Shown here: positions 1 to 52,026 of the stretch, piece by piece
Numbering within the stretch: the stretch's first letter is position 1
How the letters are laid out: each line of letters begins with the position of its first letter
Origin: a virus
Reading direction: 5' to 3' (one strand)
Length of the DNA: 64,000 nucleotides
IMG/VR virus record: IMGVR_UViG_3300008448_011290
Notes under the pieces: model-generated
Told to the model about the DNA's origin: nothing
What the model saw: only the letters and a program-made list of their open reading frames with translations
The model's database searches: none
Translations under genes and position numbers: made by a program

Positions 1-255
1 TAGAGCGGGATATTTTTCATGCAATTCAAACTCATAATTTCTAAGAGCTGTGGAGCTCCATCCATCATAAGACACAGTGTATGATGTTGATGCAGTGCCG
101 CTGCCCACGCCTTGCGGCAAGATTGAATTTGCTTGTACTGAAAAAATACCGGGAATGTTTACTTGTCCTGTTTTTGGATCTAACGATCCATATGACTTTT
201 GATTTTCTAATTCAGGAAATAATGGACAGGTACTGACAGTTGAGCTATTAGCCAT
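1..255 (-). CDS. Hypothetical protein, partial (runs off the left edge)
   Basis: Manual translation MANSSTVSTCPLFPELE...ELHEKYPAL. ATG overlaps the folE stop. The KYPAL motif also occurs in 55969..56271. Confidence 0.55.
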   Translation of the reverse strand, partial: MANSSTVSTCPLFPELENQKSYGSLDPKTGQVNIPGIFSVQANSILPQGVGSGTASTSYTVSYDGWSSTALRNYEFELHEKYPAL

Positions 256-1000
256 TGGGACCACTTTGTGCTTCTTGTAATTGTATATTGTGCATAAATT
301 CATTTTTTAATGCAGGATCTGTTTTCAATAAACCTTTCAACACTGTGGTTTGTGTGCTGGAGTTAGCACTTCTTATACCTCTGTTCTCACAACAGCCGTG
401 TCTTGCTCGTATATAGACTCCTACTGCTGGACTCTCTGTGAGTTTTGTAATTTTATAAGCAATCATTTCTGTTAATTCTTCTTGCAGATGTCCTCTGTGT
501 GCCAGATGCTGTGCAACTCGAGTGTATTTGCTCAATCCAATAAGTTTTTTACCTGGTAGACAACCAATATAACATATACCTGTTACTGGTTGATGGTGAT
601 GCGAACACATACTCTTAATGTCTGCTCGTACCACAATTAATTGATCATATCTGCCGTCTTCATTAGGAAATGCTGTTACTTCCGGGGCAGTACTGTATCT
701 TCCGCCCATGATTTCATTAATATACATCTTTGCTAATCTTCGACCTGTACCTCTACTGTTGGGATCATTCTCTCTGTCAATAACTAGACTATCCAACACT
801 GCTTCAAATTTAACTTGTAATTCATCAATAAGTTTTTCTCTCTCGCCTTCTTCAATATATTTGCTAATATTATCTGCTGCAAAAAATCTATCTCCTGATT
901 TTTTAATTCTTTCTCGTATCTGTTGGCTTACAGGTTTATTTTTATCAGTCCATGTATCTATTAACCCTTGTGCTAGAGGATCTTTATTGATATCAGTCAT
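248..1000 (-). CDS. folE: GTP cyclohydrolase I
   Basis: SMCSHHHQP, GLSKY.R, LQEELT and HGCCENRG motifs. Start placed at MTDINK (TAATG overlap with the upstream gene). Confidence 0.95.
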   Translation of the reverse strand: MTDINKDPLAQGLIDTWTDKNKPVSQQIRERIKKSGDRFFAADNISKYIEEGEREKLIDELQVKFEAVLDSLVIDRENDPNSRGTGRRLAKMYINEIMGGRYSTAPEVTAFPNEDGRYDQLIVVRADIKSMCSHHHQPVTGICYIGCLPGKKLIGLSKYTRVAQHLAHRGHLQEELTEMIAYKITKLTESPAVGVYIRARHGCCENRGIRSANSSTQTTVLKGLLKTDPALKNEFMHNIQLQEAQSGPNG

Positions 1001-1527
1001 TAATTTAATTCCTTCCATGGTTTATCTGATCTCATTGTTAATATTATTCTAGGTTCATTAGTCGGATTTATTGCACTATGAGGAACCTGTGTATTAAAAA
1101 ATGCTGCTTTATTTAGATATATTCTATCAATTTCTTCCACATCTGATTCTTTGTATCCATTATAATAATTAATACCAGCACTTTTTTTTTCTAATTGAGC
1201 ACCTTCTTTTATTTTATAGAATACTGTATAAGTTTTTTCACAATTGTAAACAGGAATATTCAATGAATATTTAGTTTTTTCAACAGGACCATAATCTATA
1301 TGTATTGGAAGTTTTGAATTATGTTTGGTAGAAACGATGGCTACATCAAATATTTCATTCCATGGTTTTAATTTTTCTACAGATTCTTTTAATATTTCAA
1401 TTTCTCCAAAAAACTTTTTATCATAACTCTTGTATGCAGAATTATCTTTGTGAAAATCTGGAATTTTTTCTAAAACTTTTTTAGATATCTCTTCTAAATT
1501 TGGCATATCAACGTATTGGTAATTCAT
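1000..1527 (-). CDS. Fe(II)/2OG-dependent oxygenase-like (cupin) protein
   Basis: HxD (IHID), distal His (PHSAIN) and Arg (PRIILT). AT-rich. Confidence 0.65.
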   Translation of the reverse strand: MNYQYVDMPNLEEISKKVLEKIPDFHKDNSAYKSYDKKFFGEIEILKESVEKLKPWNEIFDVAIVSTKHNSKLPIHIDYGPVEKTKYSLNIPVYNCEKTYTVFYKIKEGAQLEKKSAGINYYNGYKESDVEEIDRIYLNKAAFFNTQVPHSAINPTNEPRIILTMRSDKPWKELN

Positions 1528-2519
1528 TAGTTCAAGTCTTTTTGATTGATCTTACTATACCATTTTACAGCAGTCTGCACTATGTTGTCAATAGAGCTGT
1601 GCTTGGGTTCCCAACCCAATTCACTTTTTGCACGTGTGGTATTTGCTACCAACACTGGTGGGTCTCCTGCTCTGCGAGCCATTTCAGCAATCTTTATATT
1701 GCCCACATATTTTTTAATAGTTTCTAACAGTTGTCTATTGCTGGTACTAATACCAGAGCCTAAATTATATCTTTCACAGATCACATTACCTGATGCACGT
1801 TGTAGAGATAGAACATGTGCATTGGCAAGATCAGTCACATGCACGTAATCTCTCACACAGGTTCCATCGGGTGTATCAAAATCTGTACCAAATAATCGAA
1901 ACTCGCGAGTTTGATATGCTGCTTCTATAGCCAATGGTATGATATGCGACTCATCTTCTCTTAGTTCACCTATTTCACTGTCAGCGTCAGCACCTGCAGC
2001 ATTAAAATATCTTAAACTTACACTGCTTAATCCATAAGCCACATAATAATCTTTTAGAATATTTTCTACCATTAATTTGCTTCTACCATAGGGATTGATT
2101 GGTTGTAGATCAGTTTCGTCGTCTTCTGCTATACCATTAGCAGGAATACCATAAACGGCTGCACTGGATGAGAACACAAACTTGTTTACACCTGCTTCTC
2201 TTAATTTGTCTAATAATTGCACAGTCATTATCACATTGTTCTTGTAATATTTAGATGGATTTCGTACAGATTCTCCCACTTGTGTGTGTGCGGCAAAATG
2301 TATGCAAGAATCTATGTTGTATCTGTGAATTATCTCTTTTAAAAAATCTATATCTCGAGGTAGATTACATTCAAATGCTGGTCCGTATTGTGTAGCCCAT
2401 GGTTTGGTCTTGATATCTCTGTCTACTACCACAGGTGTAAAACCATTTTTTGTTAATTCTTTAGCAGTGTGAGAACCTATATAACCGGCTCCTCCCACAA
2501 CCAGCACTGACTTGTTCAT
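1527..2519 (-). CDS. galE: UDP-glucose 4-epimerase
   Basis: GGAGYIGSH, HFAA..QVGES, FSSSAAVYG, YGRSK, LRYFN, RDYVHVTDLA. Confidence 0.95.
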   Translation of the reverse strand: MNKSVLVVGGAGYIGSHTAKELTKNGFTPVVVDRDIKTKPWATQYGPAFECNLPRDIDFLKEIIHRYNIDSCIHFAAHTQVGESVRNPSKYYKNNVIMTVQLLDKLREAGVNKFVFSSSAAVYGIPANGIAEDDETDLQPINPYGRSKLMVENILKDYYVAYGLSSVSLRYFNAAGADADSEIGELREDESHIIPLAIEAAYQTREFRLFGTDFDTPDGTCVRDYVHVTDLANAHVLSLQRASGNVICERYNLGSGISTSNRQLLETIKKYVGNIKIAEMARRAGDPPVLVANTTRAKSELGWEPKHSSIDNIVQTAVKWYSKINQKDLN

Positions 2520-2523
2520 ACCT

Positions 2524-3699
2524 TTAATATTTGCTTTCGGACGCGGTGTTTCTATAATGTTTACCATCTCTTCTCCATTGCTCGCCTATACCAGTCATAA
2601 TATCAATCATTCTATCAATAGTGCTATCAGTCCAATCAGATATACGACCCATATTAGGAGATGGTTTGGATAATAATGTTTTTAATTTCTCCATTGCATC
2701 TCTGCCACTCCACGGTACATACATTCTAGTTTCATCATTGGCAAAAGTTTCTGGAAATGATCGATATGCTGGAAATAAAACATTACAACCTAGAGTATCT
2801 GCTTCAGAAACTGTGTTAGATACCCAATCTTGTAGAGCACAATTGAATAATACTCGAGTATCATTTAATAATTCATAATAATCATTCTTTTTAAGATTTT
2901 CATAGATTTTTAATGCACCTGCCTGTTCCATCATTTTTGCTCGATTTACATAAACAGGATTATTGGATCTTAGAGGTCCTCCACAGAATATTGCAAATTC
3001 TACAGAGGGTAAAGTTTTGTTTGCATGCCAGTGTTCTATTAAATCCATAAAGAATCCGGGTTGTTTCTCTTGATCCCATCTCGCAGCGAATCCGACTCTT
3101 CGAGCTCTTTGCTCAAATGGTTTAATTTTTTTAACTCGTTCTAGTACTTCCGCTTTGCCATAACTTAAACCAGATATGTTATAGATAGGAGCCTTCCAAT
3201 TGGCTATTCTCATATGAGCTACCATCTCTTCATTGGTTGCAAGAATATGCACATTGGGTATTTCATTACACATTTGTTCATACAAACTCATCCATCGGCT
3301 CATTCCCCAAACGTGTACAAAATCATCTGGATCTATGGCTTGTGCCAAACATCTTAAATAAATTCTTGGTCTATATTGTTCTGGTGATTGTTGTATGATA
3401 TAAGGCAGAGATTCTATGCCTGGTTGGAACATATCTTCAAAAAATATCGCATCATCTGATGTAATCTCTCCTGCTTTCATCATCCGAACCAAATTCATCA
3501 TTTGGCTCATACCAAAATAACTTCTTCCGTGGGCATCTAATACCTGTCCTGTTACAATTGCTTTAGAATTATCTATAGTAGTACCTGGCACAATAACATA
3601 ATCTATACCACGTCTTTTATAAACTCTTTCTGTCCAATCTGTTAATTGTAGAGTATAACGACCTTCATAAGGTTCTAAACCCATGTAAAATATTTTCAT
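2524..3699 (-). CDS. GT-B (GT4-like) glycosyltransferase, candidate DNA glycosyltransferase
   Basis: C-terminal half ARWDQEKQP...LFNCALQDWVSNTVSEADTLGC.VL.P resembles the GT4 nucleotide-sugar-binding region. Adjacent to galE. Confidence 0.75.
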   Translation of the reverse strand: MKIFYMGLEPYEGRYTLQLTDWTERVYKRRGIDYVIVPGTTIDNSKAIVTGQVLDAHGRSYFGMSQMMNLVRMMKAGEITSDDAIFFEDMFQPGIESLPYIIQQSPEQYRPRIYLRCLAQAIDPDDFVHVWGMSRWMSLYEQMCNEIPNVHILATNEEMVAHMRIANWKAPIYNISGLSYGKAEVLERVKKIKPFEQRARRVGFAARWDQEKQPGFFMDLIEHWHANKTLPSVEFAIFCGGPLRSNNPVYVNRAKMMEQAGALKIYENLKKNDYYELLNDTRVLFNCALQDWVSNTVSEADTLGCNVLFPAYRSFPETFANDETRMYVPWSGRDAMEKLKTLLSKPSPNMGRISDWTDSTIDRMIDIMTGIGEQWRRDGKHYRNTASESKY

Positions 3700-4046
3700 C
3701 GAGCAACCTTTGTTAATTTAACACCACCATCACTGGTATGTTTAATATCATAATCACATTTCGCTTTAAGATGCAACCAAGTTCTAATTTTTTCATCCTT
3801 AACATATAGAGTCACTGTATCTTCCATATCATCGTTGTAGCCGTGATATGCCCAAATAAAATCCTTGCCATAGGTATAACCAGCACTGCCCATCATAGTG
3901 CATACATTGGCCACAGCATCTACGAAAGTATAGTCAGCATTCAATGCACCGCCACCTATGGGAAGATAACCTTTCCTTTTGGTCAATGTCTTAACTGGTA
4001 CGTTAACTTCTACGTTAACCTCTTGGGTATTCTGCTTTCGAGCCAT
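3696..4046 (-). CDS. Hypothetical protein
   Basis: ORF with GGAG upstream of MARKQ, coupled to both neighbours. Confidence 0.6.
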   Translation of the reverse strand: MARKQNTQEVNVEVNVPVKTLTKRKGYLPIGGGALNADYTFVDAVANVCTMMGSAGYTYGKDFIWAYHGYNDDMEDTVTLYVKDEKIRTWLHLKAKCDYDIKHTSDGGVKLTKVAR

Positions 4047-4449
4047 TCTCTCCATCCTCTGATACTTCTATTGTTACTTTTCTGCCTGGGTAACGTTCTA
4101 CAATTGTAAGATATAAATCATCTGATATCATTTCACAAGATTTGTAATCCAAAGCCAATGTCTTCTCTGCGTATAATTTTTCTAACCACCTTTTAAACTG
4201 TATAAACTCAATGTCTCGATCATCATGAAATACTTCTATTGCTACATGAAAATGAAATATATGTCTGTGAGGATAACCTAAGAAACTTACATCATACTCA
4301 TCTCCTGTGGCTAATTTAGGATCTGTTAATGCTGCTGGATATTTGTGAATACCTTCTTTGCGGAAAGTTACCCAAATCATCTTTGAGCTTTGACCTAATT
4401 TTTCTTTTAATGCCTGCTCTCTTTGTAACTGTTGTAAATCTATTGTCAT
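4015..4449 (-). CDS. dpdL: QueD-like T-fold protein, DpdL-type (predicted 7-carboxy-7-deazaguanine decarboxylase)
   Basis: LGYPHRHIF (LxxxHRHxF) in place of the QueD CxxxHGH motif; SCEMI and VSEDGENG T-fold glutamates; dpdA/folE context. Confidence 0.7.
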   Translation of the reverse strand: MTIDLQQLQREQALKEKLGQSSKMIWVTFRKEGIHKYPAALTDPKLATGDEYDVSFLGYPHRHIFHFHVAIEVFHDDRDIEFIQFKRWLEKLYAEKTLALDYKSCEMISDDLYLTIVERYPGRKVTIEVSEDGENGSKAEYPRG

Positions 4450-4964
4450 TTTATAATCTCATCTTTGCTGTATTGATTCCAATCTGTAAATCCTGATTTG
4501 TCTTTAAAATCCTTCATGCTCATGGTCCACACGCCTGGATTGCTATGTCGAAAAGTAACATCATCTATCTTAAAATGTAATTGTTTGTCATCGTCGCTGT
4601 CTTTGAATATAATTGAGCAGAATGGTATAAATTTAGGTTCATTCCATATTAGTGCAAATCTTTTTTTAACTTCTTCATGATCCGCAAAAGGATAATCAAT
4701 TGTGACATAATACCCATTGTCTAATAATTTTTTCATTTGAAAAACATGTGTGCCTATGTTGTATTGAAATGTTCTATTAGCACCATAATAGACTGCTTCA
4801 CAACCATGCAGTGTTGCAAGTTCTAATACCTGATCTGTGTCAAATTCGTTTGTGGCTAAGAATAAGGTTTGTTTGCCATATGCTAGAGTATGTTCGATCT
4901 CTAATCCTGTGAATGCTTTAACTGATTCATTACCAAAATGTCCTGAATTATAATCTCTGTGCAT
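4446..4964 (-). CDS. Hypothetical protein at the head of the deazaguanine/glycosylation operon
   Basis: FTGLEIEHT.AYG..TLF. Start moved to MHRDY because the ORF-track start lies inside a -35/-10 promoter. Confidence 0.6.
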   Translation of the reverse strand: MHRDYNSGHFGNESVKAFTGLEIEHTLAYGKQTLFLATNEFDTDQVLELATLHGCEAVYYGANRTFQYNIGTHVFQMKKLLDNGYYVTIDYPFADHEEVKKRFALIWNEPKFIPFCSIIFKDSDDDKQLHFKIDDVTFRHSNPGVWTMSMKDFKDKSGFTDWNQYSKDEIIK

Positions 4965-4972
4965 ATCGTGTA

Positions 4973-5000
4973 ATTGTAACATAATAATTCAATCTGTCAA
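4973..5000 (-). promoter_or_regulatory. Sigma70-type promoter TTGACA-N16-TACAAT
   Basis: Read directly; 8 nt before ATG 4964. Confidence 0.65.
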
Positions 5001-5156
5001 AGTGTTAATGTTGGTTATTTGCATATTATAATATAGATTATTACACTTACCACTAGTGATATTAATATTATAAATGCGTAATATAATCTGTAACAGTTTA
5101 TTATAAATCGTGATCCTCTCGAGTTATATTTTTTTCCAGATAAAGCAATTATTTTT

Positions 5157-5828
5157 TTAAACATGTTCATGCTGTATTTTTGGATATTGTCCTCGCACAA
5201 AAGGTGGCACATCTTTATATCTTTTTTTATTAGTTTTTTCACCAGGTTCTATGCCTATGGCAGATCTTCTTATATCTATCAAATAAACCAATCTACGATG
5301 ATCTGTATAATTGTAAGCACTGTGTATAAACTGATTATCAAATCCAAATAAATCGCTCCAATCGATCTCTACTCCTTCTACTTCAAGGAATATGTCTCCT
5401 TTAGGTATGATTAAAGGTATGTGTATTCTTAAAAATTCACCATTTCTATTCTCTATTCCTGTATGCCTCTCAATTATACTGTTTTTTTCCAATATAGAAT
5501 AAGTGCTAATAGGACAATCTTCTCCCCAACGTTCTGTTAGAGCTACTGCGGTGGGAAATCTTTTTTTAATTTCTTCATTCTTAAATGGATCTAAAACTAT
5601 ATTTTTTTCTTTATAAACATATTTTAATCCATCTATTTTCCAAGCATGTTCATGACTTTTTATATTGTTGGTATCAAATGTTTCATTGATATAAGGAACA
5701 CCCTTACTGAAATTGCCTTCAATAAAATCTGTGTGATAAGCTAGGAATTCTTCTGTTAACTTCGGCGCAAGAGATAGTAATTCATCTGCTATGCTTATTT
5801 CTTTCCTAAGCCAGATGCTCTTTCTCAT
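5157..5828 (-). CDS. Aspartyl/asparaginyl beta-hydroxylase family Fe(II)/2OG oxygenase
   Basis: SIIERHTG, LRIHIPL, FDN..IHSAYN, RLVYLID. Confidence 0.8.
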   Translation of the reverse strand: MRKSIWLRKEISIADELLSLAPKLTEEFLAYHTDFIEGNFSKGVPYINETFDTNNIKSHEHAWKIDGLKYVYKEKNIVLDPFKNEEIKKRFPTAVALTERWGEDCPISTYSILEKNSIIERHTGIENRNGEFLRIHIPLIIPKGDIFLEVEGVEIDWSDLFGFDNQFIHSAYNYTDHRRLVYLIDIRRSAIGIEPGEKTNKKRYKDVPPFVRGQYPKIQHEHV

Positions 5829-6019
5829 GAATTCAGATTTTTTTCCAATTCTGCGATTTGATCTTTTAAAGCTAATTTTTCTTTTTTTAATCGCATTAAT
5901 ATAGTTTTACTTTCTATACTTCTATCATGAAGTCTTAATTCAGTAACCTCTGCTACCTTTCTATTTAGATAATCATGATGTAGTTGTAATTTTTTTAATT
6001 GTTTGTTTTTATTAGACAT
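5825..6019 (-). CDS. DUF465/YdcH-like small coiled-coil protein
   Basis: L...H..L...V......LKKEKL.LKDQI pattern. Confidence 0.65.
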   Translation of the reverse strand: MSNKNKQLKKLQLHHDYLNRKVAEVTELRLHDRSIESKTILMRLKKEKLALKDQIAELEKNLNS

Positions 6020-6020
6020 A

Positions 6021-7466
6021 TTATGCTCCTTCAAATAGAGAACTGAAATTGTTTTTACCTTTACCGCCACCAGTAGCTCTTTGCCATCGGGTGCCTCTAA
6101 GATCGGCTAAGAACGACGTAGCAGAACTGATTAATTCCATAGGTTTTTCAGATTCAAAAACTTCTTTAACAAATGTATTGAAATATAGAATATTTCTCGG
6201 AACGAAATCACTCATTTGATCTGTATTGTCTGAATCTTTAATCTTTCTCCAGTGTTTTGCTTGTGGTTGATATTTGATAGATTCAATGTCATTCATATCA
6301 TTGGCAATCTGTACTGCTCTAATATGATTATAAACATTGTGAGCCATCATTAATACGTAACTGAAACTATCCCAAGCAGTCTTGCCTTCTTTGTTGTTTT
6401 TATTTAGATCGCCTTCTCCATACCAACAAATATCTCCCATGTTTAATCGATTACCTATAGCAGATTTAAATGGGAATGGTATAGTGCTGCCTTTTAATCT
6501 TTTATCATCTGGTGCTTTCTCCATAATATAACTCCATCTCTTAGGAGTGAATAGATTATGTGTGTAAACCAAACCATTGGCTGTGCTTAGAAATGCTGAT
6601 GCTGAATCAAAACTAATTGTGACATCTGGATTTACATGTTCTCTTAATTGTCTTTGTATCTGTGTTAAGAAACAAGCCCAATCCAATTGTGATGTACCTA
6701 ACACGTGTATCCAGTTTTTCTTGTCTAATTTCTTCTCATCTCTCATTATGATTAATCTTTTTAACAGTACTTCCATGTCGCACATGTTGATACCGCCCAT
6801 TGCCCAACCTTCAAACTCGAAATCTTTGATAGCATCATACCAGGTTTGTGCTGTTTCCCAATCGTCTCCTTGTAGAACGTTTAAAAACTTAGTTTGTCCT
6901 AATCTATTTTTTTGGAAGAAATTGTTGTTATAGATTGTGCCATTTAGAGTGTCTCGGAAACTCTTTAATCCTGTTTTAGGAGAGTTTAATTCGTCAGCTG
7001 CCCAAGTTGGCACGTCCAGCGTCATAGACCAATCAGCAGTCAATTCTAACCAATTTAGAATATCACTTCTAACTTTGTTAGCTTTGTTACCTTCAAAATC
7101 TTGCCAATCAAAATTAATAACTCCTCGTCCTATCTGATATCCACCTGAATCTCCCACTATAGTGGAGAATTTTCTATCTCTTTGTACACACATACTGTCA
7201 GCTACTGGTGCTTTTTCTACATCTAGACACGCATGTCCTGCTGAATATAAACCCACGTCATAGGTGAAATAACCTTTTTCTGGATTAAGGAAGTTTAAAC
7301 CTTCTACATCATTCTCAAAACCCAGAGGTACTCTGTCTTTGGGTATGTGATCACCTTTCGCTCTCTGTTTACTAACGAAAGTATTGTAGAAATTAGATAT
7401 CGCTGGCAAGAACTTCGCAAAGTCCCTGTTCAAAGGTCCTAGATGTTCTTGCCCGATATTTGACAT
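6021..7466 (-). CDS. dpdA: DNA 7-deazaguanine transglycosylase (TGT fold, DpdA2-like)
   Basis: GDSGGYQIG, MTLDVP, LNVLQG, WAMGG, HVLGT and SFDSAS carry the TGT catalytic aspartates. No C-terminal CxCxxC Zn site of bacterial tRNA TGT. Lies among replication genes. Confidence 0.85.
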   Translation of the reverse strand: MSNIGQEHLGPLNRDFAKFLPAISNFYNTFVSKQRAKGDHIPKDRVPLGFENDVEGLNFLNPEKGYFTYDVGLYSAGHACLDVEKAPVADSMCVQRDRKFSTIVGDSGGYQIGRGVINFDWQDFEGNKANKVRSDILNWLELTADWSMTLDVPTWAADELNSPKTGLKSFRDTLNGTIYNNNFFQKNRLGQTKFLNVLQGDDWETAQTWYDAIKDFEFEGWAMGGINMCDMEVLLKRLIIMRDEKKLDKKNWIHVLGTSQLDWACFLTQIQRQLREHVNPDVTISFDSASAFLSTANGLVYTHNLFTPKRWSYIMEKAPDDKRLKGSTIPFPFKSAIGNRLNMGDICWYGEGDLNKNNKEGKTAWDSFSYVLMMAHNVYNHIRAVQIANDMNDIESIKYQPQAKHWRKIKDSDNTDQMSDFVPRNILYFNTFVKEVFESEKPMELISSATSFLADLRGTRWQRATGGGKGKNNFSSLFEGA

Positions 7467-8271: not shown

Positions 8272-9090
8272 TTATTTTTTTGCTGGAATTTCTAAGACTT
8301 TGTACAATACTGGATTATCGTTACCAGGTTTCTGAAATATGGCATAATTGGCTCCAGGTTTAAACTGATCCATTTCTATCACAGTATATCCACATTCTTT
8401 GATCAGTTTGGTCATAGCAGATTTGGTATTATAATTCCAATATCCACGCTTTGATTCATGTAGATCATAATCATATTCGCAGTTGGCATAATGTAAGAAT
8501 ACATAACCTCCTGGTAATATAACTCTAAATATATCTTTGAGATATAATTTTATGTGTTGTTGTGTAAAGAAAGGAAAGGTATCCCAACTGAATACAAAAT
8601 TAACGGAATTATTTGGAATATCTGGACAAGATGTCCAATTGGTTAAATTAAATTTAATATATTGCAAATGAAAGGGATTGAATAATTTTTTTATTTTGGT
8701 TTGACAATGTGGAACAACATCAACAAAATAGTTTAATCTCCATGCTAAGAAACATTTACTAAATTTACCATAGCCTGGACCTATTTCTAAACTATTACAT
8801 AGATTAGCTGCTGAACCTGATTTAGCAAAATGTCCTATTTTACTTTCTATACGATCAAATAATATTTGATCATGTAATAAATCTTTTCTTGCATGTCGCC
8901 ATTCTAAATCAGCAGCATACCAATCTTTGGTTTTATCTAATCGATCTATTTGATCTTGGTTATTAATATCTACAACTGATGCTAAATTTTTAAGTATTTT
9001 TAAATTATCATCAATGAGTTGTTGAAAATCATGTCCTTTGATTTTTTCTAATTTCTCTATTAATAATTTAATCTCTTCTATACTCAACAT
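8272..9090 (-). CDS. Class I SAM-dependent methyltransferase
   Basis: LEIGPGYG, FVFSWDTF, RVILPGG. Confidence 0.8.
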   Translation of the reverse strand: MLSIEEIKLLIEKLEKIKGHDFQQLIDDNLKILKNLASVVDINNQDQIDRLDKTKDWYAADLEWRHARKDLLHDQILFDRIESKIGHFAKSGSAANLCNSLEIGPGYGKFSKCFLAWRLNYFVDVVPHCQTKIKKLFNPFHLQYIKFNLTNWTSCPDIPNNSVNFVFSWDTFPFFTQQHIKLYLKDIFRVILPGGYVFLHYANCEYDYDLHESKRGYWNYNTKSAMTKLIKECGYTVIEMDQFKPGANYAIFQKPGNDNPVLYKVLEIPAKK

Positions 9091-9091
9091 A

Positions 9092-11758
9092 TTAAGCCAT
9101 TTCAAATAGTTTGTTAAATGTATTAGAACTCTCTGTGGATCTCACGTCCCATTCCAGCACACCTATTAAGTTTTCAATCTTACCATCCAGCACACTCTCT
9201 TCCATACCATCTGAATCAAACGGTAACTCTTTAAACCATTCTGGCAATCTTTGCTCATCCACAGGATATGCTATAGAAGTATAACCTAAAGGATTATTCT
9301 TTAATTTGCATACAATCACCTTAGCACCATCTAGGATAGGCATACTGTATTTGTCACTATACATCTCTCTGCATCGGTTCCAATTGATGCTGGCTCTTAC
9401 GTGTCCTGGCATATTAGTTTTGCCTTTTTTCTTTTCTTCTTCGTGATATTCTGTAATGTTATTAGCACGTTTAGGAGAACCTTTTTCCCAACCTGGTCTA
9501 GATTTAAATTCTGCTCGGAATTGTTTAATCTTATCCAATACTTCTGTTTCAGTTTTACCTACCAGTACTAGATACAATACTTCACTTAAAAAATCCTGTA
9601 CAAATACCGGAGTATCTGAACGTTTAAGATCCAATCCCATGGCTTTTACTTTGCCTTCTTTGCCTGCTGTGTCCACACGCTCATTCTCTTTGTCAAAATA
9701 CAGCAGTGCATATCTTTTTTTAGTTATAAACAATCCTTTGGATGCAACTAATTCTCGACCTGCTCGTATCACATCACCGCGAGTTTTAGGACAATGGAAT
9801 GCTCGAGTCATGAATGCTGAGAATGTTTCATTTACTTCTTCGGCTATACGATCATAGAGAGCAATAATATTCTCTTTGCCCCATGGTATCTGCCCACCGT
9901 CTATTTCTTTTTTTAGAGTAGCATAAGCAGAAAAATACACCGAGTCTGTGTCACCATATATCACACTCTCTCCCACGTGATCATATCGACCTGCAATAAT
10001 TTCATTGGTCTTAGCAGCCATGTGTTGCGTAATACATCTGCCAGTTAATGTTACTGATTGTCCTATACGCATGTCAAAGAAACGACAACCTGGATTTAGA
10101 ATTGCACCATACAGAGAGTTTAGATTAATTTTTTTAACTAACTGTCTTTTATCCCAAAACTCTCTTTCGATAGCATTATCTCCACATTCATTCATTCTTT
10201 TTTGCATGTCTTTTCTTTCAGCATACCATCTTTTTAATAATCCTGGAATAACACCTTCAAATTCATATGTGAATATAGTACCATTGGCAGAGATCATCCA
10301 CTGTCTGTTACCATCAAACACAAGATCATACAGTTGTGCTGCACTCATTCTCACACTAGTACCATCTTCCCAATCAATGATTAATTCTGTGCCTTTGTCC
10401 TTGTTCATCACTGCTTGATACTCCCAACAACCAAACTGTCCTTCCCATGCAGTAGCAAATGATTTGCCTTGATGTTTCGCTCTGTTTATTTCTGCAGATG
10501 TAATCACCGGACGTATCTGTCCTACGATAGTTTCTGGACCCATATTTAGAGCTCGAATCACAGATGGATACAGTGAGTTTATGTCCACTGATCCGATCCA
10601 GTCATGTATGCCTTTTTTGGGATATGCCACATAGGCTCCTGCTGCTGATTCCACAGGTGCTGATTCATCTCTTTTTGCTCGACCCGGTACTATCATGCCT
10701 CGACGATGTGCTTCATTGATAATAGCTTGTTCTGTAACTGCCACTGCTCCCATGGTGGTTTGCAATAACACAGTGTTCTGATGTGCAATCTCATTGGCTA
10801 ATTCAATAAATTTTAATTTCTTTTCTAATTTTGCTAATAGATTACAGTCTTGTCGGTTGTATTCTATGAACATGCCAAAATCATTGTTGTACAATTGATC
10901 CAATGATCCTTCATACACAGTTTTCTTTTCATCCAATTCCCATTCGCCTATGGCATCTAAACGATAACTGTGACGTTCTTCATAGGTATATTTTCTATAT
11001 AATTCTAATAAATCTAAATGTACTCGACCAATTAAATCATAACTGATCTGTTCTCGACCATATTTCTCAAATGTTCTTTTTTTAGGTTTTTCTCCCCAAA
11101 AGCATAATCTTCGAGTATCATCGGAACTCAATACTTTCTGTATTCTTCCCACAACATAGGGTATATCATATCCTTCCGAGTTCCAACCACTGATAACATC
11201 TCCTTCGTCCACTAGTGTTAAGAAAGCATCTAGCATGTCTTTTTCTTTTTCGAACAACATTACATTGCTGAATCTTTCCACTTGCAATTTAGCATCTGCC
11301 ATGCTCAATCCTTTGGGAGGTATTGCAAAAGTTACGAGCTGATCAGTCCAGTTGAGATAACAAGTGATTGCTGTGATGGGCATGAAAGGATCATCTGTGG
11401 TAGAATATCCACGCTGTGGATCGAAGTCCACTTCAATATCAAAGAACACCACATTGAGTTTGGGAGCATCTTTGCCTAGATAATTCTCTTCAAGACAACG
11501 AAAGACAGGATTGATATCCTGCTCAAACAATTTTTTATTGCTCCTAATTTTTTGTTCTTTTATAAACTCTTTAAACGTACTACAAGAAACTTTCTGTAGA
11601 GTTTCTCCGTGTATGCTTCTATGTTTTCCTCGAGGATCTGGATAATAGAATACATATCGAGCATCATAATCCACAAATCTTCTCTGACCGTTGGCATCAC
11701 GTTCTACTACCAACACCTTGTCGTCATCTCTGCGATAATAAGCGTCTATGTAACTCAT
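9092..11758 (-). CDS. polB: Family B DNA polymerase
   Basis: Exo I FDIE, DINSLYPS, KINLNSLYG, YGDTDS, KKRYA. Confidence 0.97.
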   Translation of the reverse strand: MSYIDAYYRRDDDKVLVVERDANGQRRFVDYDARYVFYYPDPRGKHRSIHGETLQKVSCSTFKEFIKEQKIRSNKKLFEQDINPVFRCLEENYLGKDAPKLNVVFFDIEVDFDPQRGYSTTDDPFMPITAITCYLNWTDQLVTFAIPPKGLSMADAKLQVERFSNVMLFEKEKDMLDAFLTLVDEGDVISGWNSEGYDIPYVVGRIQKVLSSDDTRRLCFWGEKPKKRTFEKYGREQISYDLIGRVHLDLLELYRKYTYEERHSYRLDAIGEWELDEKKTVYEGSLDQLYNNDFGMFIEYNRQDCNLLAKLEKKLKFIELANEIAHQNTVLLQTTMGAVAVTEQAIINEAHRRGMIVPGRAKRDESAPVESAAGAYVAYPKKGIHDWIGSVDINSLYPSVIRALNMGPETIVGQIRPVITSAEINRAKHQGKSFATAWEGQFGCWEYQAVMNKDKGTELIIDWEDGTSVRMSAAQLYDLVFDGNRQWMISANGTIFTYEFEGVIPGLLKRWYAERKDMQKRMNECGDNAIEREFWDKRQLVKKINLNSLYGAILNPGCRFFDMRIGQSVTLTGRCITQHMAAKTNEIIAGRYDHVGESVIYGDTDSVYFSAYATLKKEIDGGQIPWGKENIIALYDRIAEEVNETFSAFMTRAFHCPKTRGDVIRAGRELVASKGLFITKKRYALLYFDKENERVDTAGKEGKVKAMGLDLKRSDTPVFVQDFLSEVLYLVLVGKTETEVLDKIKQFRAEFKSRPGWEKGSPKRANNITEYHEEEKKKGKTNMPGHVRASINWNRCREMYSDKYSMPILDGAKVIVCKLKNNPLGYTSIAYPVDEQRLPEWFKELPFDSDGMEESVLDGKIENLIGVLEWDVRSTESSNTFNKLFEMA

Positions 11759-27161: not shown

Positions 27162-27835
27162 TTGGATACCTTTACAAATTTTATAACTTTTTCTATAGCT
27201 TCTTGTGCTATCATGTATATAGGAGTCAACATCTTTTCATCTCGCACATAAAAATAACCTTGCCATCCGTATTGGCTGGCTCCTTCTAAATATTCTTTTA
27301 CATACTTGCCTGTTATTAGACAATTTTCTGGATTTTGATTTAGATATCTATATAGATCTTCTCGTTGATGCTGTTTTAATATTCTGTGTACATTCTTTTT
27401 TAAATGTACCTGATACTGGTATTTGCCCAATGGTAATCTTTTACACAGCACAGAATTTTTATCTAGTAGATAAGATTTATCTTCTGGAATAGCATCAGCA
27501 TTAGACCATTCATCCCAAAAAACAGAGACTAGATCTTTAGCCATATTCTCATCACAATAAAAAACACTGTCTATATTCTGTATTCGAAACTTCATATTTT
27601 TTCTATTATGTAATATAAATGATGCTAATTTTTTTAATTTTTTACTGTGTTTAAAAAAGAACACCCATCGATTTTCTCTCATCGCTCGTTCTGCTTTAAA
27701 ATCCTTCTCTTGATGATCCAGCACTGACTTTAAATGCTGATCTGTTGTAGGATATAGATAACAAGCCCATGGCATACGAAATACTACTTTATTAGTATAC
27801 CTACCAAAATATAATCTATTATGATGTTTTCGCAT
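27158..27835 (-). CDS. Hypothetical protein
   Basis: 225-aa ORF coupled to clpA. Confidence 0.6.
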   Translation of the reverse strand: MRKHHNRLYFGRYTNKVVFRMPWACYLYPTTDQHLKSVLDHQEKDFKAERAMRENRWVFFFKHSKKLKKLASFILHNRKNMKFRIQNIDSVFYCDENMAKDLVSVFWDEWSNADAIPEDKSYLLDKNSVLCKRLPLGKYQYQVHLKKNVHRILKQHQREDLYRYLNQNPENCLITGKYVKEYLEGASQYGWQGYFYVRDEKMLTPIYMIAQEAIEKVIKFVKVSK

Positions 27836-30131
27836 CAGCTGATTCTGTTTGAGTGTTTGTTTCTGCCTGCGATTTTTTATATTCTAATGCTATCTTTTCA
27901 TCTTTAATTGTAACTTCAACCCTACCACCATCTAATAACTCTCCAAATAAAATCATTTTAGATAAAGGTTTTTTAATCTCATCATCTATAATTCTTGCTA
28001 ATGGACGAGCTCCTAGTTTATCATCAAATCCTTTTTTAACTAGATATTCTATAGCTTCTTCAGAAGCATTCACTTCCACACGTTTTTCCAGTGTCATTGT
28101 GTTTAACTCTAATAAGAATTTCTTCACAATTCTCTTCATGGTCTCTTTTTCTAGTTTTCTAAATTTAATTACAGCATCTAACCTATTACGGAACTCTGGA
28201 GCAAAGAATCTTTTAACTGCATCATCATCGTCGCTTCTCTGTTGATCTCCAAATCCTAGATTAGCTCGTTCCATTTCTTCTGCACCTAAATTAGATGTAA
28301 GAATTAAAATAATATTTCTACAATCAGCTTTCTTACCATTACTACCTGTCACAGTTCCATAATCCATTACTTGTAACAACATATTAGTAACATCTTGATG
28401 TGCTTTTTCCACTTCGTCAAACAGTACCACTGCATGAGGATGTTTTTCAATCTCATTAATAAACAAACCACCGCCCATGTGTGAGTCTTCGTAGCCCACA
28501 TAGCCTGGAGGCGATCCTATTAATTTGGCAATAGAATGTTTCTCTTGATACTCAGACATATCAAATCTTATCAATTGTGTGCCCAATGTAGTGGCCAATG
28601 TTCTTGCTGTTTCAGTCTTACCACAACCAGTTGGTCCTATGAATAGGAATGATCCCACAGGTTTGTTCAGACTTTTTAAACCTGCTCGGCTGATCAATAT
28701 CTTATCGATAACTTTATTTAAAGCATCATCCTGTCCAAACACCTGCAGTTTCATTTTGGTTTCCAATGTTTCTAAATTGGCTGCTTGTTTCTGACTCAAT
28801 TGCTCTATGCTGATACCTGTTAATTTGCTAATCTCGTGTATGATTTCTTCGTGATCAATTTTGCCATCTTTGATGCCTTTTAATCTTAATCTAGCACAAG
28901 CACTATCAATAACGTCTATGGCTTTGTCTGGCAATTTTTTATCTGCTATAAATTTAGATGAGTATTCCACTGCATCTTCGCAGGCTTCATCAGTGATTGT
29001 ACAACCATGAAACTTTTCATAGTATTGTTTAATACCTTTTAATATCTTAACGCAAACTTCTTGTGTGGGTTCTCCAATTTGTAATCTTTGGAATCGGCGC
29101 ATTAGAGCTCGATCTTTTTCAAAGAATTTTCTATATTCTTCCCAAGTGGTTGAAGCAATTACTTTAATATTGCCTTTGGTCAACACTGGTTTCATCATAT
29201 TGGCTAAATCCATACCACCTTGTCCTGTAGATCCAGCACCTACCATCATATGTGCTTCATCTATGAACAATATAGCATTGCCTTTTTGATCCAATGCATT
29301 CAGCACTAGTTTTAATCGCTCTTCAAAGTCTCCTCGGAATTTAGATCCTGCAATCATACTGGCAACATCTAAACTATAAACCACATTGCCTTTTAAATAT
29401 TCTGGTACATCATCTTTGTTTTTAGCAATCCTTCTTGCTAGTCCCTCTACTATGGCAGTTTTACCCACTCCTGGATCACCCACTATTAATACATTGTTTT
29501 TATTTCTACGAGCTAGAATCTGCTTTAATACTTCTAGATCGTCATCTCTGCCTATTACAGGATCTATTTTTTTATCAAAATATTTTTGATTTAAATTCTC
29601 ACAATAATTCTTTAATACTTTATCTGCTTGATTGGGTCTTAATTTTTGTTCAGGATTGACACTAGTACTACCACCCATGGCAGCTTCTTCTAAAATACTC
29701 TCTGCGGAGATCATGTCATTTAGGTCATCTTTATTAACTTTATGTGTCTTTAAAAAGAAAGCACCATAACTTTTCTTCTCAGCAAATATACTTAATAATA
29801 CATCTATAGACGTAACACTCTGTCTGCCTTGGAATAGAGCTTGTGTAAATGCTCGGTTCATTAGTCGTTCCAGTGATGCTGTTTTTCTTGGTGCTACAGG
29901 ATTTGTACTTTTGCTTACGATATCAGCACATTTAGTATCTAAATAATTCTCTATGTCCAATATCATGGCACCCACATTTGTTTTTAATTCTTGCAACACT
30001 GTGCCCACTTCTTGGTCTTTGATCAGAGCTAATAATAAATGCTCTATGGTTACGTATTCATGTTTACGTTTTTCAGCTTCTTTGACTGCGTTCTCAAAAA
30101 TATTTTCTAGTGATTCGTTTGCTTCTAACAT
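27819..30131 (-). CDS. clpA: ATP-dependent Clp protease ATP-binding subunit (ClpA-like)
   Basis: Clp N domain (HEYVTIEHLLLAL); two AAA+ modules GDPGVGKT and GPTGCGKT; FDMSEY; no ClpB middle domain. Confidence 0.92.
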   Translation of the reverse strand: MLEANESLENIFENAVKEAEKRKHEYVTIEHLLLALIKDQEVGTVLQELKTNVGAMILDIENYLDTKCADIVSKSTNPVAPRKTASLERLMNRAFTQALFQGRQSVTSIDVLLSIFAEKKSYGAFFLKTHKVNKDDLNDMISAESILEEAAMGGSTSVNPEQKLRPNQADKVLKNYCENLNQKYFDKKIDPVIGRDDDLEVLKQILARRNKNNVLIVGDPGVGKTAIVEGLARRIAKNKDDVPEYLKGNVVYSLDVASMIAGSKFRGDFEERLKLVLNALDQKGNAILFIDEAHMMVGAGSTGQGGMDLANMMKPVLTKGNIKVIASTTWEEYRKFFEKDRALMRRFQRLQIGEPTQEVCVKILKGIKQYYEKFHGCTITDEACEDAVEYSSKFIADKKLPDKAIDVIDSACARLRLKGIKDGKIDHEEIIHEISKLTGISIEQLSQKQAANLETLETKMKLQVFGQDDALNKVIDKILISRAGLKSLNKPVGSFLFIGPTGCGKTETARTLATTLGTQLIRFDMSEYQEKHSIAKLIGSPPGYVGYEDSHMGGGLFINEIEKHPHAVVLFDEVEKAHQDVTNMLLQVMDYGTVTGSNGKKADCRNIILILTSNLGAEEMERANLGFGDQQRSDDDDAVKRFFAPEFRNRLDAVIKFRKLEKETMKRIVKKFLLELNTMTLEKRVEVNASEEAIEYLVKKGFDDKLGARPLARIIDDEIKKPLSKMILFGELLDGGRVEVTIKDEKIALEYKKSQAETNTQTESADAKTS

Positions 30132-30601
30132 TATCTATTCGCTTTCTTATTAAACGTAATACCGTTTAGATGATCCAGTTCGTGTTGAAAACATCTTGCT
30201 TCTAAACCTTCTAATCGTGACAACAAAAATTCTCCTTTATTATTTTGATATCTGACCATTATTATTTTGGGCCTGCTTACTTGTAACAGCAATCCCGGAA
30301 AGCTCAGACATCCTTCCTGTGCTAATTCTTGCTCTTCATCTGCATTAACTAGTACTGGATTATAAATTATAGCAGGTTTTTTAAATACGTCAAATGACTC
30401 ATGGCCTATTGCAAAGAATCTTTTGGTAATGCCTATTTGGTTAGCAGCAAGACCTATGCCATTGCTGTGTATCATAAGATGTATCATGTCATGCTCAAAC
30501 ATTTCTAAATCACGATATCTCATGGGTATTTCGTCAAATTTAAACTCTGTACAGACAGTATATAATGTATGGTATGGATGAACCATTATGCTCATATTCA
30601 T
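30131..30601 (-). CDS. def: Peptide deformylase
   Basis: GIGLAANQ, EGCLS, QHELDHL. Confidence 0.95.
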   Translation of the reverse strand: MNMSIMVHPYHTLYTVCTEFKFDEIPMRYRDLEMFEHDMIHLMIHSNGIGLAANQIGITKRFFAIGHESFDVFKKPAIIYNPVLVNADEEQELAQEGCLSFPGLLLQVSRPKIIMVRYQNNKGEFLLSRLEGLEARCFQHELDHLNGITFNKKANR

Positions 30602-30602
30602 A

Positions 30603-31442
30603 TTATAAGTCCTTGATCTTCTCTAAATCTTTTGCACTCAATTGGGGTATTAATATATTAATTTTAATATATATGTTACCTTTAATATTTAATGTATCAT
30701 GCACTGGCATGCCTTGACCTTTTAAGACTATTGTATTGCCTGGCTGTGTGCCTGCAGGCACTTTAACGTTTAATATTCTGTCATCCAGTGTGCGTATTTT
30801 AAATTCTGTGCCTCGAATAGCATCAAAACAACTTATAGTTTTATCACTAAAAAGATCGTTACCTTTGCGAGTATAGCCATCTGAATCCAATACAGTTACA
30901 GTGCATAATAAATCTCCTCTTTCTAAATTATTATCAGTATCATCACCTAGTCCTTTGTATTTGAACACAGCACCATTCTGTACACCAGCAGGTATTTTTA
31001 AATTTACAATTTCATCTCTGCCTGAAGGTAGTCTTACACTGATAGTTTTTTCTGTGGCTTGATATACTTCTTTTATAGATAGAGTTATTCTAATGTTTAC
31101 TGATTGATTAGTTCGCGGTCGTGTTCTATATACTCTTGTTTGTCCTCTACCAGGCCCAAATCCAAAACCTGAGAAAAAATCTTGGAATATATCTTCGCTG
31201 AAGAAATCATTGCCCTGCTGATTGAAACCCGAACCTCGTGTTCCATAACGCCTCATGGCGTCGTACTCTTGTCTCTTTTCTGGATTTTTTAGAGTATCAT
31301 AGGCTTCATTGATCTCTTTAAATTTATTTTCATCTCCGCCTTGATCAGGATGATACTTTTTAGCCAATACTTTAAATGCGTTCTTTATCTCTTTCTCAGA
31401 AGCAGTTTCGGCCACACCTAGAGTGTCGTAAAAATTCTTCAT
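30603..31442 (-). CDS. DnaJ/CbpA-type co-chaperone (no Zn finger)
   Basis: J domain with HPD, G/F region, DnaJ C-terminal domain. Confidence 0.92.
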   Translation of the reverse strand: MKNFYDTLGVAETASEKEIKNAFKVLAKKYHPDQGGDENKFKEINEAYDTLKNPEKRQEYDAMRRYGTRGSGFNQQGNDFFSEDIFQDFFSGFGFGPGRGQTRVYRTRPRTNQSVNIRITLSIKEVYQATEKTISVRLPSGRDEIVNLKIPAGVQNGAVFKYKGLGDDTDNNLERGDLLCTVTVLDSDGYTRKGNDLFSDKTISCFDAIRGTEFKIRTLDDRILNVKVPAGTQPGNTIVLKGQGMPVHDTLNIKGNIYIKINILIPQLSAKDLEKIKDL

Positions 31443-34579: not shown

Positions 34580-35293
34580 ATGTCTCGTAAACACAGACGT
34601 CAAAAACAACAATCCAACATCGTTAACTTTATGAATTATCTTGCCGAAAAAAAACAAGCGGCTAGACCTACCGCTAGAACACCGGGTCAGCAGGAGTATT
34701 TGAACATATTAAACAACTACCAATACAAGATTGTAGTGGCATTAGGACCAGCAGGAACAGGCAAAACCATGCTGGCTACAGAGCGTGCTATTGAGCGATT
34801 ACAAAAAGGTGAAATCGATAAAGTGGTTGTGACTCGTCCTGCTAGCTCAGTGGACGAAGAAATAGGATTTTTACCCGGTGATATTAATCGTAAAATGGAA
34901 CCGTGGATGAAACCTATACTGGATGTTTTTGAGAGTCATTATATGCCACCCACAGTGGATGAGATGATGAAACGTGGCACTATAGAAATTGCACCACTGG
35001 CATTCATGCGAGGAAGAACATTTAAAGATGCATTTATTATTGGAGATGAAATGCAAAATTCTACTCCTTCACAGATGAAGATGTTAATGACTCGTTTGGG
35101 CAGAGGATCACAGATGGTTATCACAGGAGATACTCGTCAATCAGACAGAATGGTGGGCAATGGATTGGTAGATTTTAAAAGGCAATATGAGAATTATTTT
35201 AATGCTGAATACGTTAAATTTATAGAATTAGGCAAAGCGGATATACAGAGACATCCTGCTGTGTCAGAAGTGTTAGGAATTTACGGAGAATAA
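34580..35293 (+). CDS. phoH: PhoH-family ATPase
   Basis: GPAGTGKT, GFLPG, FMRGRTF, DEMQN, GD..Q.D. Confidence 0.95.
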   Translation: MSRKHRRQKQQSNIVNFMNYLAEKKQAARPTARTPGQQEYLNILNNYQYKIVVALGPAGTGKTMLATERAIERLQKGEIDKVVVTRPASSVDEEIGFLPGDINRKMEPWMKPILDVFESHYMPPTVDEMMKRGTIEIAPLAFMRGRTFKDAFIIGDEMQNSTPSQMKMLMTRLGRGSQMVITGDTRQSDRMVGNGLVDFKRQYENYFNAEYVKFIELGKADIQRHPAVSEVLGIYGE

Positions 35294-51998: not shown

Positions 51999-52026
51999 AT
52001 TGTAACACATTATTGCCAATTGTCAA
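51999..52026 (-). promoter_or_regulatory. Sigma70-type promoter TTGACA-N16-TACAAT, leaderless
   Basis: 6 nt to ATG 51992. Confidence 0.7.

Follow-up and report, generated by a model that had tools for sequence, protein, structure and literature searches.

What does a glycosyltransferase (GT) do in a cluster of genes for 7-deazaguanine modification of phage DNA? This question is raised by the window, a 64,000-nt stretch of DNA from an uncultured marine jumbo phage (IMG/VR record IMGVR_UViG_3300008448_011290), which is AT-rich (~36% GC) and carries ten open reading frames (ORFs) at 248-7466, all on the minus strand and abutting or overlapping save for one 175-bp gap (4982-5157). All ten are present as described in an original prediction, which was made without database searches and proposed that the run combines a deazaguanine pathway with a sugar-transfer module. 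Read along the minus strand, the order of the genes is polB, a clamp-like gene, a DpdA-like gene, a DUF465-like gene, an Asp/Arg hydroxylase gene, p178, DpdL, p119, the GT, GalE, p175, and FolE (Table 1). To our knowledge, none of the known 7-deazaguanine modifications of DNA (dPreQ0, dPreQ1, dADG, dG+, dCDG, dDG, and methyl- and formyl-dPreQ1) carries a sugar, and the known sugar-bearing DNA bases are all pyrimidines. The answer favoured here, which we hold to be about evenly balanced between right and wrong, is that the run represents a DpdL-type module for the modification of DNA with 7-deazaguanine, to which a sugar arm has been added.

The deazaguanine side of the run is recognized by its QueD paralogue. 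The gene originally described as an HRH-type QueD paralogue proved to be DpdL, both by its motif and by homology with phage phiST: the motif given in Table 1 fits LxxxHRHxF, which stands in place of the QueD motif CxxxHGH, and the protein is related to the founding DpdL, phiST CGPG_00067 (30.5% identity by tblastn, E 5e-8; profile E 2.6e-21). LxxxHRHxF is the published signature of DpdL, which has been proposed to be the decarboxylase of 7-carboxy-7-deazaguanine (CDG) (PMC10516641). In an alignment of 27 DpdL homologues, F56, L57, H61, R62, H63, and F65 are invariant. When the DpdL profile is compared with the window's own QueD, the hhalign probability is 6.6%, and the T-fold kinship between DpdL and QueD/PTPS is taken from the HHpred analysis that was published for DpdL of phiST (PMC10516641). 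As a separate observation, in gp176 of Vibrio phage Bakedbeans (L102:7260-8411), DpdL forms the C-terminal part of a 383-aa protein with a fused N-terminal domain of ~250 aa; no GT was detected in that locus.

FolE and, at 53.8 kb, a canonical QueD are encoded in the window, just as had been claimed, and FolE also matches the NCBIfam FolE models with E-values down to 7.5e-41, all of these scores being under the cut-offs of the models. The statement that the window has no queC or queF likewise stands: tblastn reveals no homologue of QueC, QueF, Gat-QueC, or QueE in the window, and Pfam scans of ~60 window ORFs reveal none either. The suggestion to look for queE, queC, and queF beyond the cluster gave a divided answer, with none of them in the rest of the window, QueE in the nearest IMG/VR relative, and no true QueC in the contigs of six relatives. 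This nearest relative, G001, is a 72.7-kb contig of ~80% nucleotide identity, and its CheckV completeness of 21% implies a jumbo genome. Downstream of FolE, G001 encodes a GMP-reductase-like protein, a phosphoribosyltransferase, a YhhQ-type transporter, a cupin, a DUF6614 protein, and a QueE-like radical SAM enzyme, and QueE is therefore probably located just past the left edge of the window (~4 kb beyond it in G001). Weak QueC-family matches in the relatives were rejected, as they cover ~60 residues of the profile C-terminus, one scoring just over the cut-off and one under it. FolE, QueD, and DpdL in the window, together with QueE in a relative and without QueC, point to a phiST-type system working at the level of CDG.

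Whether the GT belongs to this pathway may be judged from its company in other viruses. IMG/VR was sampled twice, with 80 loci collected from the DpdA-like protein and 80 of at least 600 stretches collected from a GT. The loci of the first set are close kin (76-97% identity), and the second set is deeper, with DpdA-like proteins 36-52% and polB 48-69% identical. Wherever the contig reaches, the close kin keep polB, the clamp-like gene, the DpdA-like gene, DUF465, p178, DpdL, p119, the GT, GalE, and FolE; the deeper loci keep the DpdA-like gene, p178, DpdL, the GT, GalE, and FolE. DpdL lies just upstream of the GT in 126 of the 127 GT contigs that have at least 1.5 kb of upstream sequence (median gap 644 bp), and the DpdA-like gene is present in each of the 126 GT contigs with at least 5 kb of it. 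Co-occurrence of this kind had been expected by the original prediction if the GT belongs to the deazaguanine pathway, and a GT standing apart from the DpdA-like gene, named in advance as the finding that would speak against such membership, occurs in 0 of the 126 contigs with enough flanking sequence. A pyrimidine hydroxymethylase had been named as another possible cause for the presence of a GT, but no enzyme of the thymidylate-synthase type was found in the contigs of five relatives (114-197 kb) or among the ~60 window ORFs scanned with Pfam. These comparisons of gene content support the view that the GT and GalE are parts of the deazaguanine module and no chance neighbours.

The same association is seen in cultured phages. 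By profile search, the GT is found beside DpdL in six of them (PA5oct, ACP17, BUDD, BCSR5, BUCT-ZZ01, and Phosso), and in all 17 phage records with a tblastn match to the GT, the latter lies no more than 3 kb from DpdL. The set of GT, DpdL, and DpdA-like gene recurs in PA5oct, ACP17, BUDD, BCSR5, and BUCT-ZZ01; in Phosso, the GT adjoins DpdL, and the DpdA-like gene is located elsewhere in the genome. The gene order is GT, DpdA, DpdL, and QueE in BUDD, and DpdA-like, DpdL, and GT in the T4-like cyanophage BUCT-ZZ01, where the three genes are adjacent. In BUCT-ZZ01, the GT is 68% identical to that of the window, DpdL is 39% identical, and the DpdA-like protein is barely alignable; the difference between the first two values suggests that the GT has moved between phages and settled again beside DpdL. 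No GT was found in phiST, which has DpdL and DpdA3 and whose DNA carries plain dDG (PMC10516641), and neither DpdL nor GT in Vibrio phage 2.275.O, which has a DpdA-like protein with QueC and QueF. Taken with the repeated adjacency, these two contrasts indicate that the GT tracks DpdL.

The gene set is very abundant in aquatic viromes: in IMG/VR, the GT is encoded on at least 600 stretches, and protein clusters number in the thousands. Contigs of 225-250 kb exist for this clade. Among 185,579 species genomes, the GT is matched at six loci only, all of them on phage-type contigs binned into metagenome-assembled genomes. These contigs (L183-L188, binned as Rickettsiales, Chitinophagales, Phycisphaerae, Haliscomenobacter, and Syntrophomonadaceae) carry the full module, from polB to FolE as far as each contig extends. 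Being phage contigs, they do not assign a host, nor do they point to a version of the module in a bacterial chromosome.

The transglycosylase of the run is a divergent one. Its AlphaFold2 (AF2) model is of high confidence (predicted local distance difference test, pLDDT, 92.7; predicted template-modelling score 0.92), and the 50 best Foldseek matches listed from the PDB are all tRNA-guanine transglycosylases (TGTs), with probability 1.0, E ~2e-8, and template-modelling (TM) scores of 0.4-0.5. Judged from this model, the 481-aa protein is a TGT-fold enzyme of a very divergent family. At the sequence level, it has no match in Pfam (PF01702 included; E up to 0.01), NCBIfam, or PHROG, and a single-sequence search of PDB sequences returned nothing. 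The only meaningful matches of its profile among PDB sequences are the Zymomonas mobilis TGTs, and these are weak (E ~0.35); in this comparison, DSGGFQ (DSGGYQ in TGT), the next Asp, LNVLQG, and GWAFAG align with the active-site strands. A homologue search yielded 941 cluster representatives, of which 66 diverse ones were aligned. D106, S107, G109, and D287 are invariant and G108 and Q111 near-invariant, giving the motif GDSGGFQ, and D287 is, from its position in the sequence, the presumed counterpart of the TGT nucleophile Asp. No Cys is invariant or near-invariant in this alignment; the zinc site of tRNA TGTs (CxCxxC...H) is thus missing from the family.

The DpdA2 label given to this protein by the original prediction has to be dropped, since Pfam is blind to the divergent TGT-fold family and, among named proteins, those most closely related are the DpdA-like ones of ACP17 and BUCT-ZZ01. 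By profile comparison, the hhalign probability is 96.6% for ACP17 DpdA-like, 94.7% for BUCT-ZZ01 DpdA-like, and 60% for phiST DpdA3, and tblastn against 50,697 phage records retrieves only PA5oct-like phages, Vibrio phage 2.275.O, and Phosso. The PA5oct homologue, gp168, is 41% identical and lies 3 kb from a QueE-like gene, and in 2.275.O, the DpdA-like gene adjoins QueF, YhhQ, QueC, Gat, and FolE. Such QueE, QueF, and QueC neighbours are strong contextual evidence for a deazaguanine role of the family.

The assignment of the GT to the GT-B class was borne out by its fold despite a weak Pfam match (Glyco_trans_1_2, 18 bits, under the cut-off of 25). Look-alike clusters in the Atlas show Glycos_transf_1 on only 21-28% of their members, and the profile finds PDB sequences with E 0.23 at best. 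The AF2 model has a moderate pLDDT of 71, and Foldseek places it among ~490 PDB structures at E up to 0.001 (best E ~2e-8, TM up to 0.62); the matches listed are all GT-B enzymes and nearly all glycosyltransferases, including GlgM, glycogen synthase, MshA, PimA, and BshA. Among viral models, the best match is an unnamed 370-aa protein, followed by the ACP17 GT, gp124. In an alignment of 21 homologues, R207, K212, D291, and E299 are invariant (R...K and D-x7-E), and the R207...K212 stretch aligns with the GT4 donor motif of WlaC. With the GT-B fold of its model, the R...K motif, and the invariant D-x7-E, the enzyme looks active. Invariant columns make up 51% of the N-terminal, acceptor-side domain versus 37% of the donor-side domain. 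No genes of the module are better conserved than those of the GT (66-97% identity) and DpdL. A predicted complex of the two scored 0.01, which is uninformative on binding either way.

The galE call was also upheld, as the protein passes the TIGR01179 equivalog model. A GalE-type gene is found 3' of the GT in 127 related loci, and among ten loci of the deep clade that were scanned, seven exceed the GalE cut-off, with GalE still the best match for the remaining three. In some relatives, a UDP-glucose dehydrogenase, a fragment of a DegT-like aminotransferase, or a cytidylyltransferase is added in the same slot, and these extra sugar-nucleotide genes look like a diversification of the sugar. Elsewhere in the window, directly downstream of QueD (52010-53861, minus strand), there are a 386-aa ORF without a known family and a 238-aa ORF with a weak match to Glyco_transf_8 (GT8; E 0.005); judged by this match and position, the latter could be a second sugar transferase linked to the pathway.

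One more conserved protein of the module, p178, is found in related loci of both samples and has five invariant residues (E28, E30, D96, D141, and D174). Its profile matches ACP17 gp122 (L096:7206-7715) with E 9e-32, and nothing is matched in Pfam, NCBIfam, PDB sequences, or the Atlas. According to the alignment and to the best promoter match of the region, its true start is probably Met13, at about position 4946; the total of promoter-like sites in the region is not above the shuffled expectation.

The two oxygenase-like genes of the run show another distribution. The original prediction had allowed for a hydroxyl, made by an oxygenase, as the site of sugar attachment. The 223-aa hydroxylase is, however, absent from 160 of the 160 related loci and from G001, which has 13 bp in place of the 832 bp of the window. 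The other, p175, for which searches with hidden Markov models (HMMs) gave no match, occurs in one of the 160 loci and in a different slot there. Both genes are window-specific passengers and cannot be a general source of a hydroxyl acceptor. A neighbouring oxygenase that makes the sugar acceptor was therefore rejected as a general mechanism, and on this comparison of loci, the two genes are not part of the conserved mechanism. The original interpretation thus keeps its placing of the GT and GalE in the deazaguanine module and loses, along with the DpdA2 label, its oxygenase route. A second hydroxylase of the same family as the 223-aa protein is encoded at 47114-47683. More generally, variable inserts are concentrated in the module, with slots between DpdL and the GT and between GalE and FolE (e.g., L042:12946-13587, L036:15674-16894, and L067:11981-12346). 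Among the genes inserted are those for a redoxin (39 loci), a SET-domain protein, a PGDYG protein, a cytidylyltransferase, and a phosphoribosyltransferase; a radical SAM/SPASM insert was found in six different slots and is probably mobile.

How might these proteins work together? FolE and QueD of the window, with QueE from beyond its edge, would make CDG, and the pathway stops short of preQ0 because QueC is missing. DpdL would process CDG, the published proposal being decarboxylation to 7-deazaguanine (PMC10516641). The DpdA-like enzyme of TGT fold would then swap guanine in phage DNA for the deazapurine, and the GT, fed with UDP-galactose by the adjacent GalE, would put a hexose on the deazapurine, acting on the base while it is still free or once it has been inserted into DNA. 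Host nucleases would be kept from the DNA by the resulting sugar-bearing 7-deazaguanine. The folds, motifs, family assignments, and close, repeated co-occurrence of the GT with DpdL and the DpdA-like gene are observed; the deazapurine as the acceptor of the GT, galactose as the sugar, the atom that is glycosylated, and the order of the steps are inferred. In its most specific form, the proposal is tentative and somewhat short of an even chance: hexosylated 7-deazaguanine would be present in virion DNA of this group and of PA5oct, ACP17, BUDD, BCSR5, BUCT-ZZ01, and Phosso, with a sugar that is here probably galactose, attached without a hydroxylation step (e.g., by C-glycosylation of the electron-rich pyrrole carbon freed by DpdL, or at N2, or at the carboxyl), and the GT, DpdL, and p178 would be the enzymes missing from a failed reconstitution discussed below.

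Several points weigh against the favoured reading. The relatives belong largely to one jumbo-phage clade, so that synteny by descent inflates the counts, which correspond to ~5-7 independent lineages. One relative, L023 (IMGVR_UViG_3300032281_001107), has an unrelated ORF of ~100 aa in place of the GT (9725-10025) and keeps DpdL, p119, GalE, and FolE, and such a clean loss indicates that the GT is not indispensable. The confidence of the GT model is moderate, and its solved neighbours are generic GT4/GT5 enzymes, with no known DNA glycosyltransferases among them. The conserved module has no hydroxylase, and 7-deazaguanine has no hydroxyl; the linkage would therefore have to be through C7, N2, or the CDG carboxyl. 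The DpdL-type DNA that has been measured chemically comes from phages without this GT, and the sugar product is, in this sense, a prediction drawn from gene content. Finally, the contig of the window is a genome fragment, and the gene inventory covers that fragment.

The GT could act outside DNA or on another target. Cyanobacterial pteridine glycosyltransferases glycosylate the side chain of pterins, and it is conceivable, though unlikely, that the product of the GT, DpdL, and FolE is a small molecule such as a glycosylated pterin and no DNA base, with DpdL acting in a PTPS-like manner on the FolE product and the GT acting on the pterin side chain. This idea draws on the fact that DpdL is a PTPS/QueD paralogue whose activity is only proposed (PMC10516641), on the UDP-glucose:tetrahydrobiopterin glucosyltransferase (5ze7) at rank 25 among the structural neighbours of the GT, and on RHph_I1_18, where FolE, PTPS, and DpdL are present and no DpdA-like gene was detected in the 14-kb locus. 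However, 5ze7 is one of the ~490 GT-B structures that score similarly, so this neighbourhood is unspecific; the GT always travels with a DpdA-like gene (126 of 126 contigs); QueE and QueD, which are needed for deazapurines only, are kept; and the dDG of phiST needs a decarboxylase, for which DpdL is the sole proposed candidate (PMC10516641). An equally low probability is given to a GT that works on an unrelated target, be it a different base of the DNA, a protein of the phage or its host, an envelope glycan, or the like, and sits in the cluster through inherited gene order. GT4 acceptors are very diverse, the module is full of unrelated passengers such as the redoxin, SET-domain, and radical SAM genes, and both the broad clade with conserved synteny around polB, to which most sampled loci belong, and the loss of the GT alone in L023 would be understandable in this case. 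Against it, the GT has been joined again to DpdL in the unrelated backbones of BUCT-ZZ01, ACP17, BUDD, and BCSR5 with varied gene orders, it keeps within 3 kb of DpdL in every phage record matched, it is absent where DpdL is absent (2.275.O), and no thymidylate-synthase-like hydroxymethylase to provide a pyrimidine acceptor was found in the contigs of five relatives or among the scanned window ORFs.

Mature DNA might also contain plain dDG or dCDG, with the GT acting transiently, for example by making a glycosylated intermediate that is trimmed later, or serving as a non-catalytic helper of the transglycosylase. Plain dDG is what was measured in the DpdL-type phages phiST, phi13:1, and phi19:2 (PMC10516641), and the conserved, enzyme-like p178 could remove or rearrange a group. 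The measured phages are without this GT, however, and the invariance of the donor-binding and D-x7-E motifs, together with the retention of GalE over deep divergence, argues for a sustained catalytic use of UDP-sugar; this alternative is regarded as slightly more doubtful than the preceding two. Glycosylated queuosines occur in eukaryotic tRNA, and the fold of the DpdA-like protein is that of a tRNA-guanine transglycosylase, so that the TGT-fold enzyme and the GT might modify tRNA and give a phage version of such queuosine-like bases. This is highly improbable. The DpdA-like gene follows polB and the clamp-like gene within the replication module, the 64-kb window contains no tRNA genes, and the family has not kept the zinc site of tRNA TGTs. 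For PA5oct, a phage with a homologue of the protein, restriction digests point to DNA in which G is modified (PMC12191111), and related DpdL systems modify DNA (PMC10516641). A DpdL-type module with a sugar arm remains the favoured reading.

If it is true, this would be, as far as has been found, the first sugar-bearing purine analogue described in DNA and a new class of natural DNA base; a full-text literature search found no description of glycosylated 7-deazaguanine in DNA or of this GT. A glycosylated deazapurine would bear on restriction, CRISPR, and modification-dependent nucleases. It may explain the modified G of the therapy-relevant jumbo phage PA5oct (PMC12191111), and the prediction is directly testable, as six phages carrying the GT are in culture.

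Table 1. Genes and signals of the window that make up or flank the module, in minus-strand order, with the more distant QueD gene at the end.
Feature	Position	Strand	Basis or remark
Family B DNA polymerase (polB)	9092-11758	-	PF00136 E 4e-37, PF03104 E 4.5e-20; upstream anchor of the module
Methyltransferase-like ORF	8272-9105		Between polB and the clamp-like ORF
Clamp-like protein, 245 aa	7466-8203	-	32% identical, E 1.5e-40, to a Phosso gene annotated as sliding clamp
DpdA-like transglycosylase, divergent TGT fold, 481 aa	6021-7466	-	AF2 model and Foldseek
DUF465-like small protein	5825-6070	-	PF04325 E 5e-5, 23.6 bits, under the cut-off of 25
Asp/Arg beta-hydroxylase-family oxygenase, 223 aa	5157-5828	-	PF05118 (Asp_Arg_Hydrox) E 4e-15
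Sigma-70-like promoter, best match of the region	4973-5000	-	TTGACA-16-TACAAT with TG; consensus match only
p178, conserved module protein	4446-4982	-	134 related loci, 25-90% identity
DpdL, QueD paralogue, 144 aa	4015-4449	-	LGYPHRHIF motif; phrog_17812 E 6e-35
p119	3696-4055	-	Closer clade only: 63 related loci, 52-95% identity
GT4-like GT-B glycosyltransferase, 391 aa	2524-3699	-	AF2 and Foldseek; weak Pfam match
UDP-glucose 4-epimerase GalE	1527-2567	-	TIGR01179 equivalog, 356.3 bits versus cut-off 262.3
p175, possibly 2-oxoglutarate-oxygenase-like, 175 aa	1000-1527	-	HxD...H pattern (HID...PHS) by eye
FolE, GTP cyclohydrolase I	248-1018	-	PF01227 E 3e-38
Canonical QueD (CPH4 synthase)	53812-54258	-	PF01242 E 1e-16; 53% identical to BUCT-ZZ01 QueD

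The remaining members of the run may be described briefly. The placing of polB upstream of the run is confirmed by its two Pfam matches, and the polB synteny is kept in related loci. The clamp label fared less evenly: HMM searches gave no match for the 245-aa ORF, but the annotated sliding clamp of Phosso is its homologue, and in related loci the gene is always located between polB and the DpdA-like gene. Similarly, the DUF465 label has the right family match behind it, but at a score under the cut-off; the gene is kept in most close relatives. For p119, no family was matched in Pfam or NCBIfam.

Other parts of the window contain genes of separate interest. At 47114-50632 (minus strand), four genes encode an Asp/Arg hydroxylase (189 aa), a flavoenzyme of the tryptophan-halogenase family (489 aa, E 3e-95), a radical SAM protein with an HMPTM-type zinc ribbon, and SufE; the set looks like one for small-molecule or peptide tailoring, which is unusual in a phage. 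A 680-aa protein encoded at 59105-61147 (minus strand) has a CHASE2 sensor fused to an adenylate/guanylate cyclase domain, and a rhodanese gene (61193-62158) and an S-adenosylmethionine decarboxylase gene (58563-59018) lie nearby. A host-like proteostasis cluster (27819-31442, 37811-38221, and 34580-35293) comprises a ClpB-type double AAA+ ATPase (770 aa), peptide deformylase, DnaJ, and a Cpn10-like protein, with PhoH on the opposite strand. A 174-aa ORF at 38660-39184 (minus strand) matches only a fragment of the NTPase domain of bacterial DNA polymerase III alpha (E 2e-11), and its neighbour is a clamp-loader-like AAA+ gene (35746-36675).

Among known systems, the α- and β-glucosyltransferases of T4 are phage GT-B enzymes that transfer a sugar from a UDP-sugar onto 5-hydroxymethylcytosine in DNA and so counter restriction. 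They offer what is, by analogy, the best working model for the GT of the window. None of their structures is among the 50 best PDB matches listed for this GT, and the only viral model annotated as a DNA α-glycosyltransferase, that of cyanophage S-TIM5, has rank 19 among the viral models. The T4 acceptor is a pyrimidine hydroxymethyl group supplied by a thymidylate-synthase-like enzyme, whereas no such enzyme was found in the contigs of five relatives of the window. The retaining GT4 enzymes MshA, PimA, BshA, GlgM, and WlaC/PglH share with the window GT the GT-B architecture of two Rossmann domains, the R...K donor motif, and an acidic-x7-E in the C-domain; the window GT differs from them in a sequence similarity under the Pfam cut-off and in an unusually well-conserved N-terminal acceptor domain without annotated relatives.

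The closest parallel for the pathway as a whole is the DpdL/DpdA3 system of phiST, which makes dDG (Cui, Hutinet et al., NAR 2023, PMC10516641). The two systems have in common FolE, QueD, and QueE without QueC, a DpdL with LxxxHRHxF, a distant TGT-fold transglycosylase beside DpdL, and a cluster placed next to polymerase genes. Unlike the window, phiST has no GT, GalE, or p178 by tblastn or profiles; its DpdA3 has 259 aa versus 481 aa here and is only weakly related, and its product is plain dDG, whereas that of the window is predicted to bear a sugar. PA5oct (Wroclawvirus) shares with the window the adjacent genes gp168-gp167-gp166, which encode the DpdA-like protein, a GT homologue, and DpdL (57% identical); QueE follows at a distance of 3 kb, and synteny with polB and the clamp-like gene is the same, but neither GalE nor p178 was detected in its locus, and the genes are annotated as hypothetical. 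The pattern of resistance of its DNA to several restriction enzymes suggests a modified G, which is suspected in GA/GG contexts (PMC12191111). In the Acidovorax phage ACP17, gp122-gp125 encode, one after the other, the p178 homologue, the DpdA-like protein, the GT, and DpdL, with QueD, FolE, and QueE on the flanks; the differences are a Busanvirus backbone, no GalE, and a GT that is only 24% identical. No dDG was formed when DpdL and DpdA of phiST, or those of ACP17, were co-expressed in E. coli, and according to the authors, further enzymes may be needed (PMC10516641). A requirement for a sugar-transfer step may explain this lack of product, and in the case of ACP17, a need for the GT and p178 would make the failure understandable.

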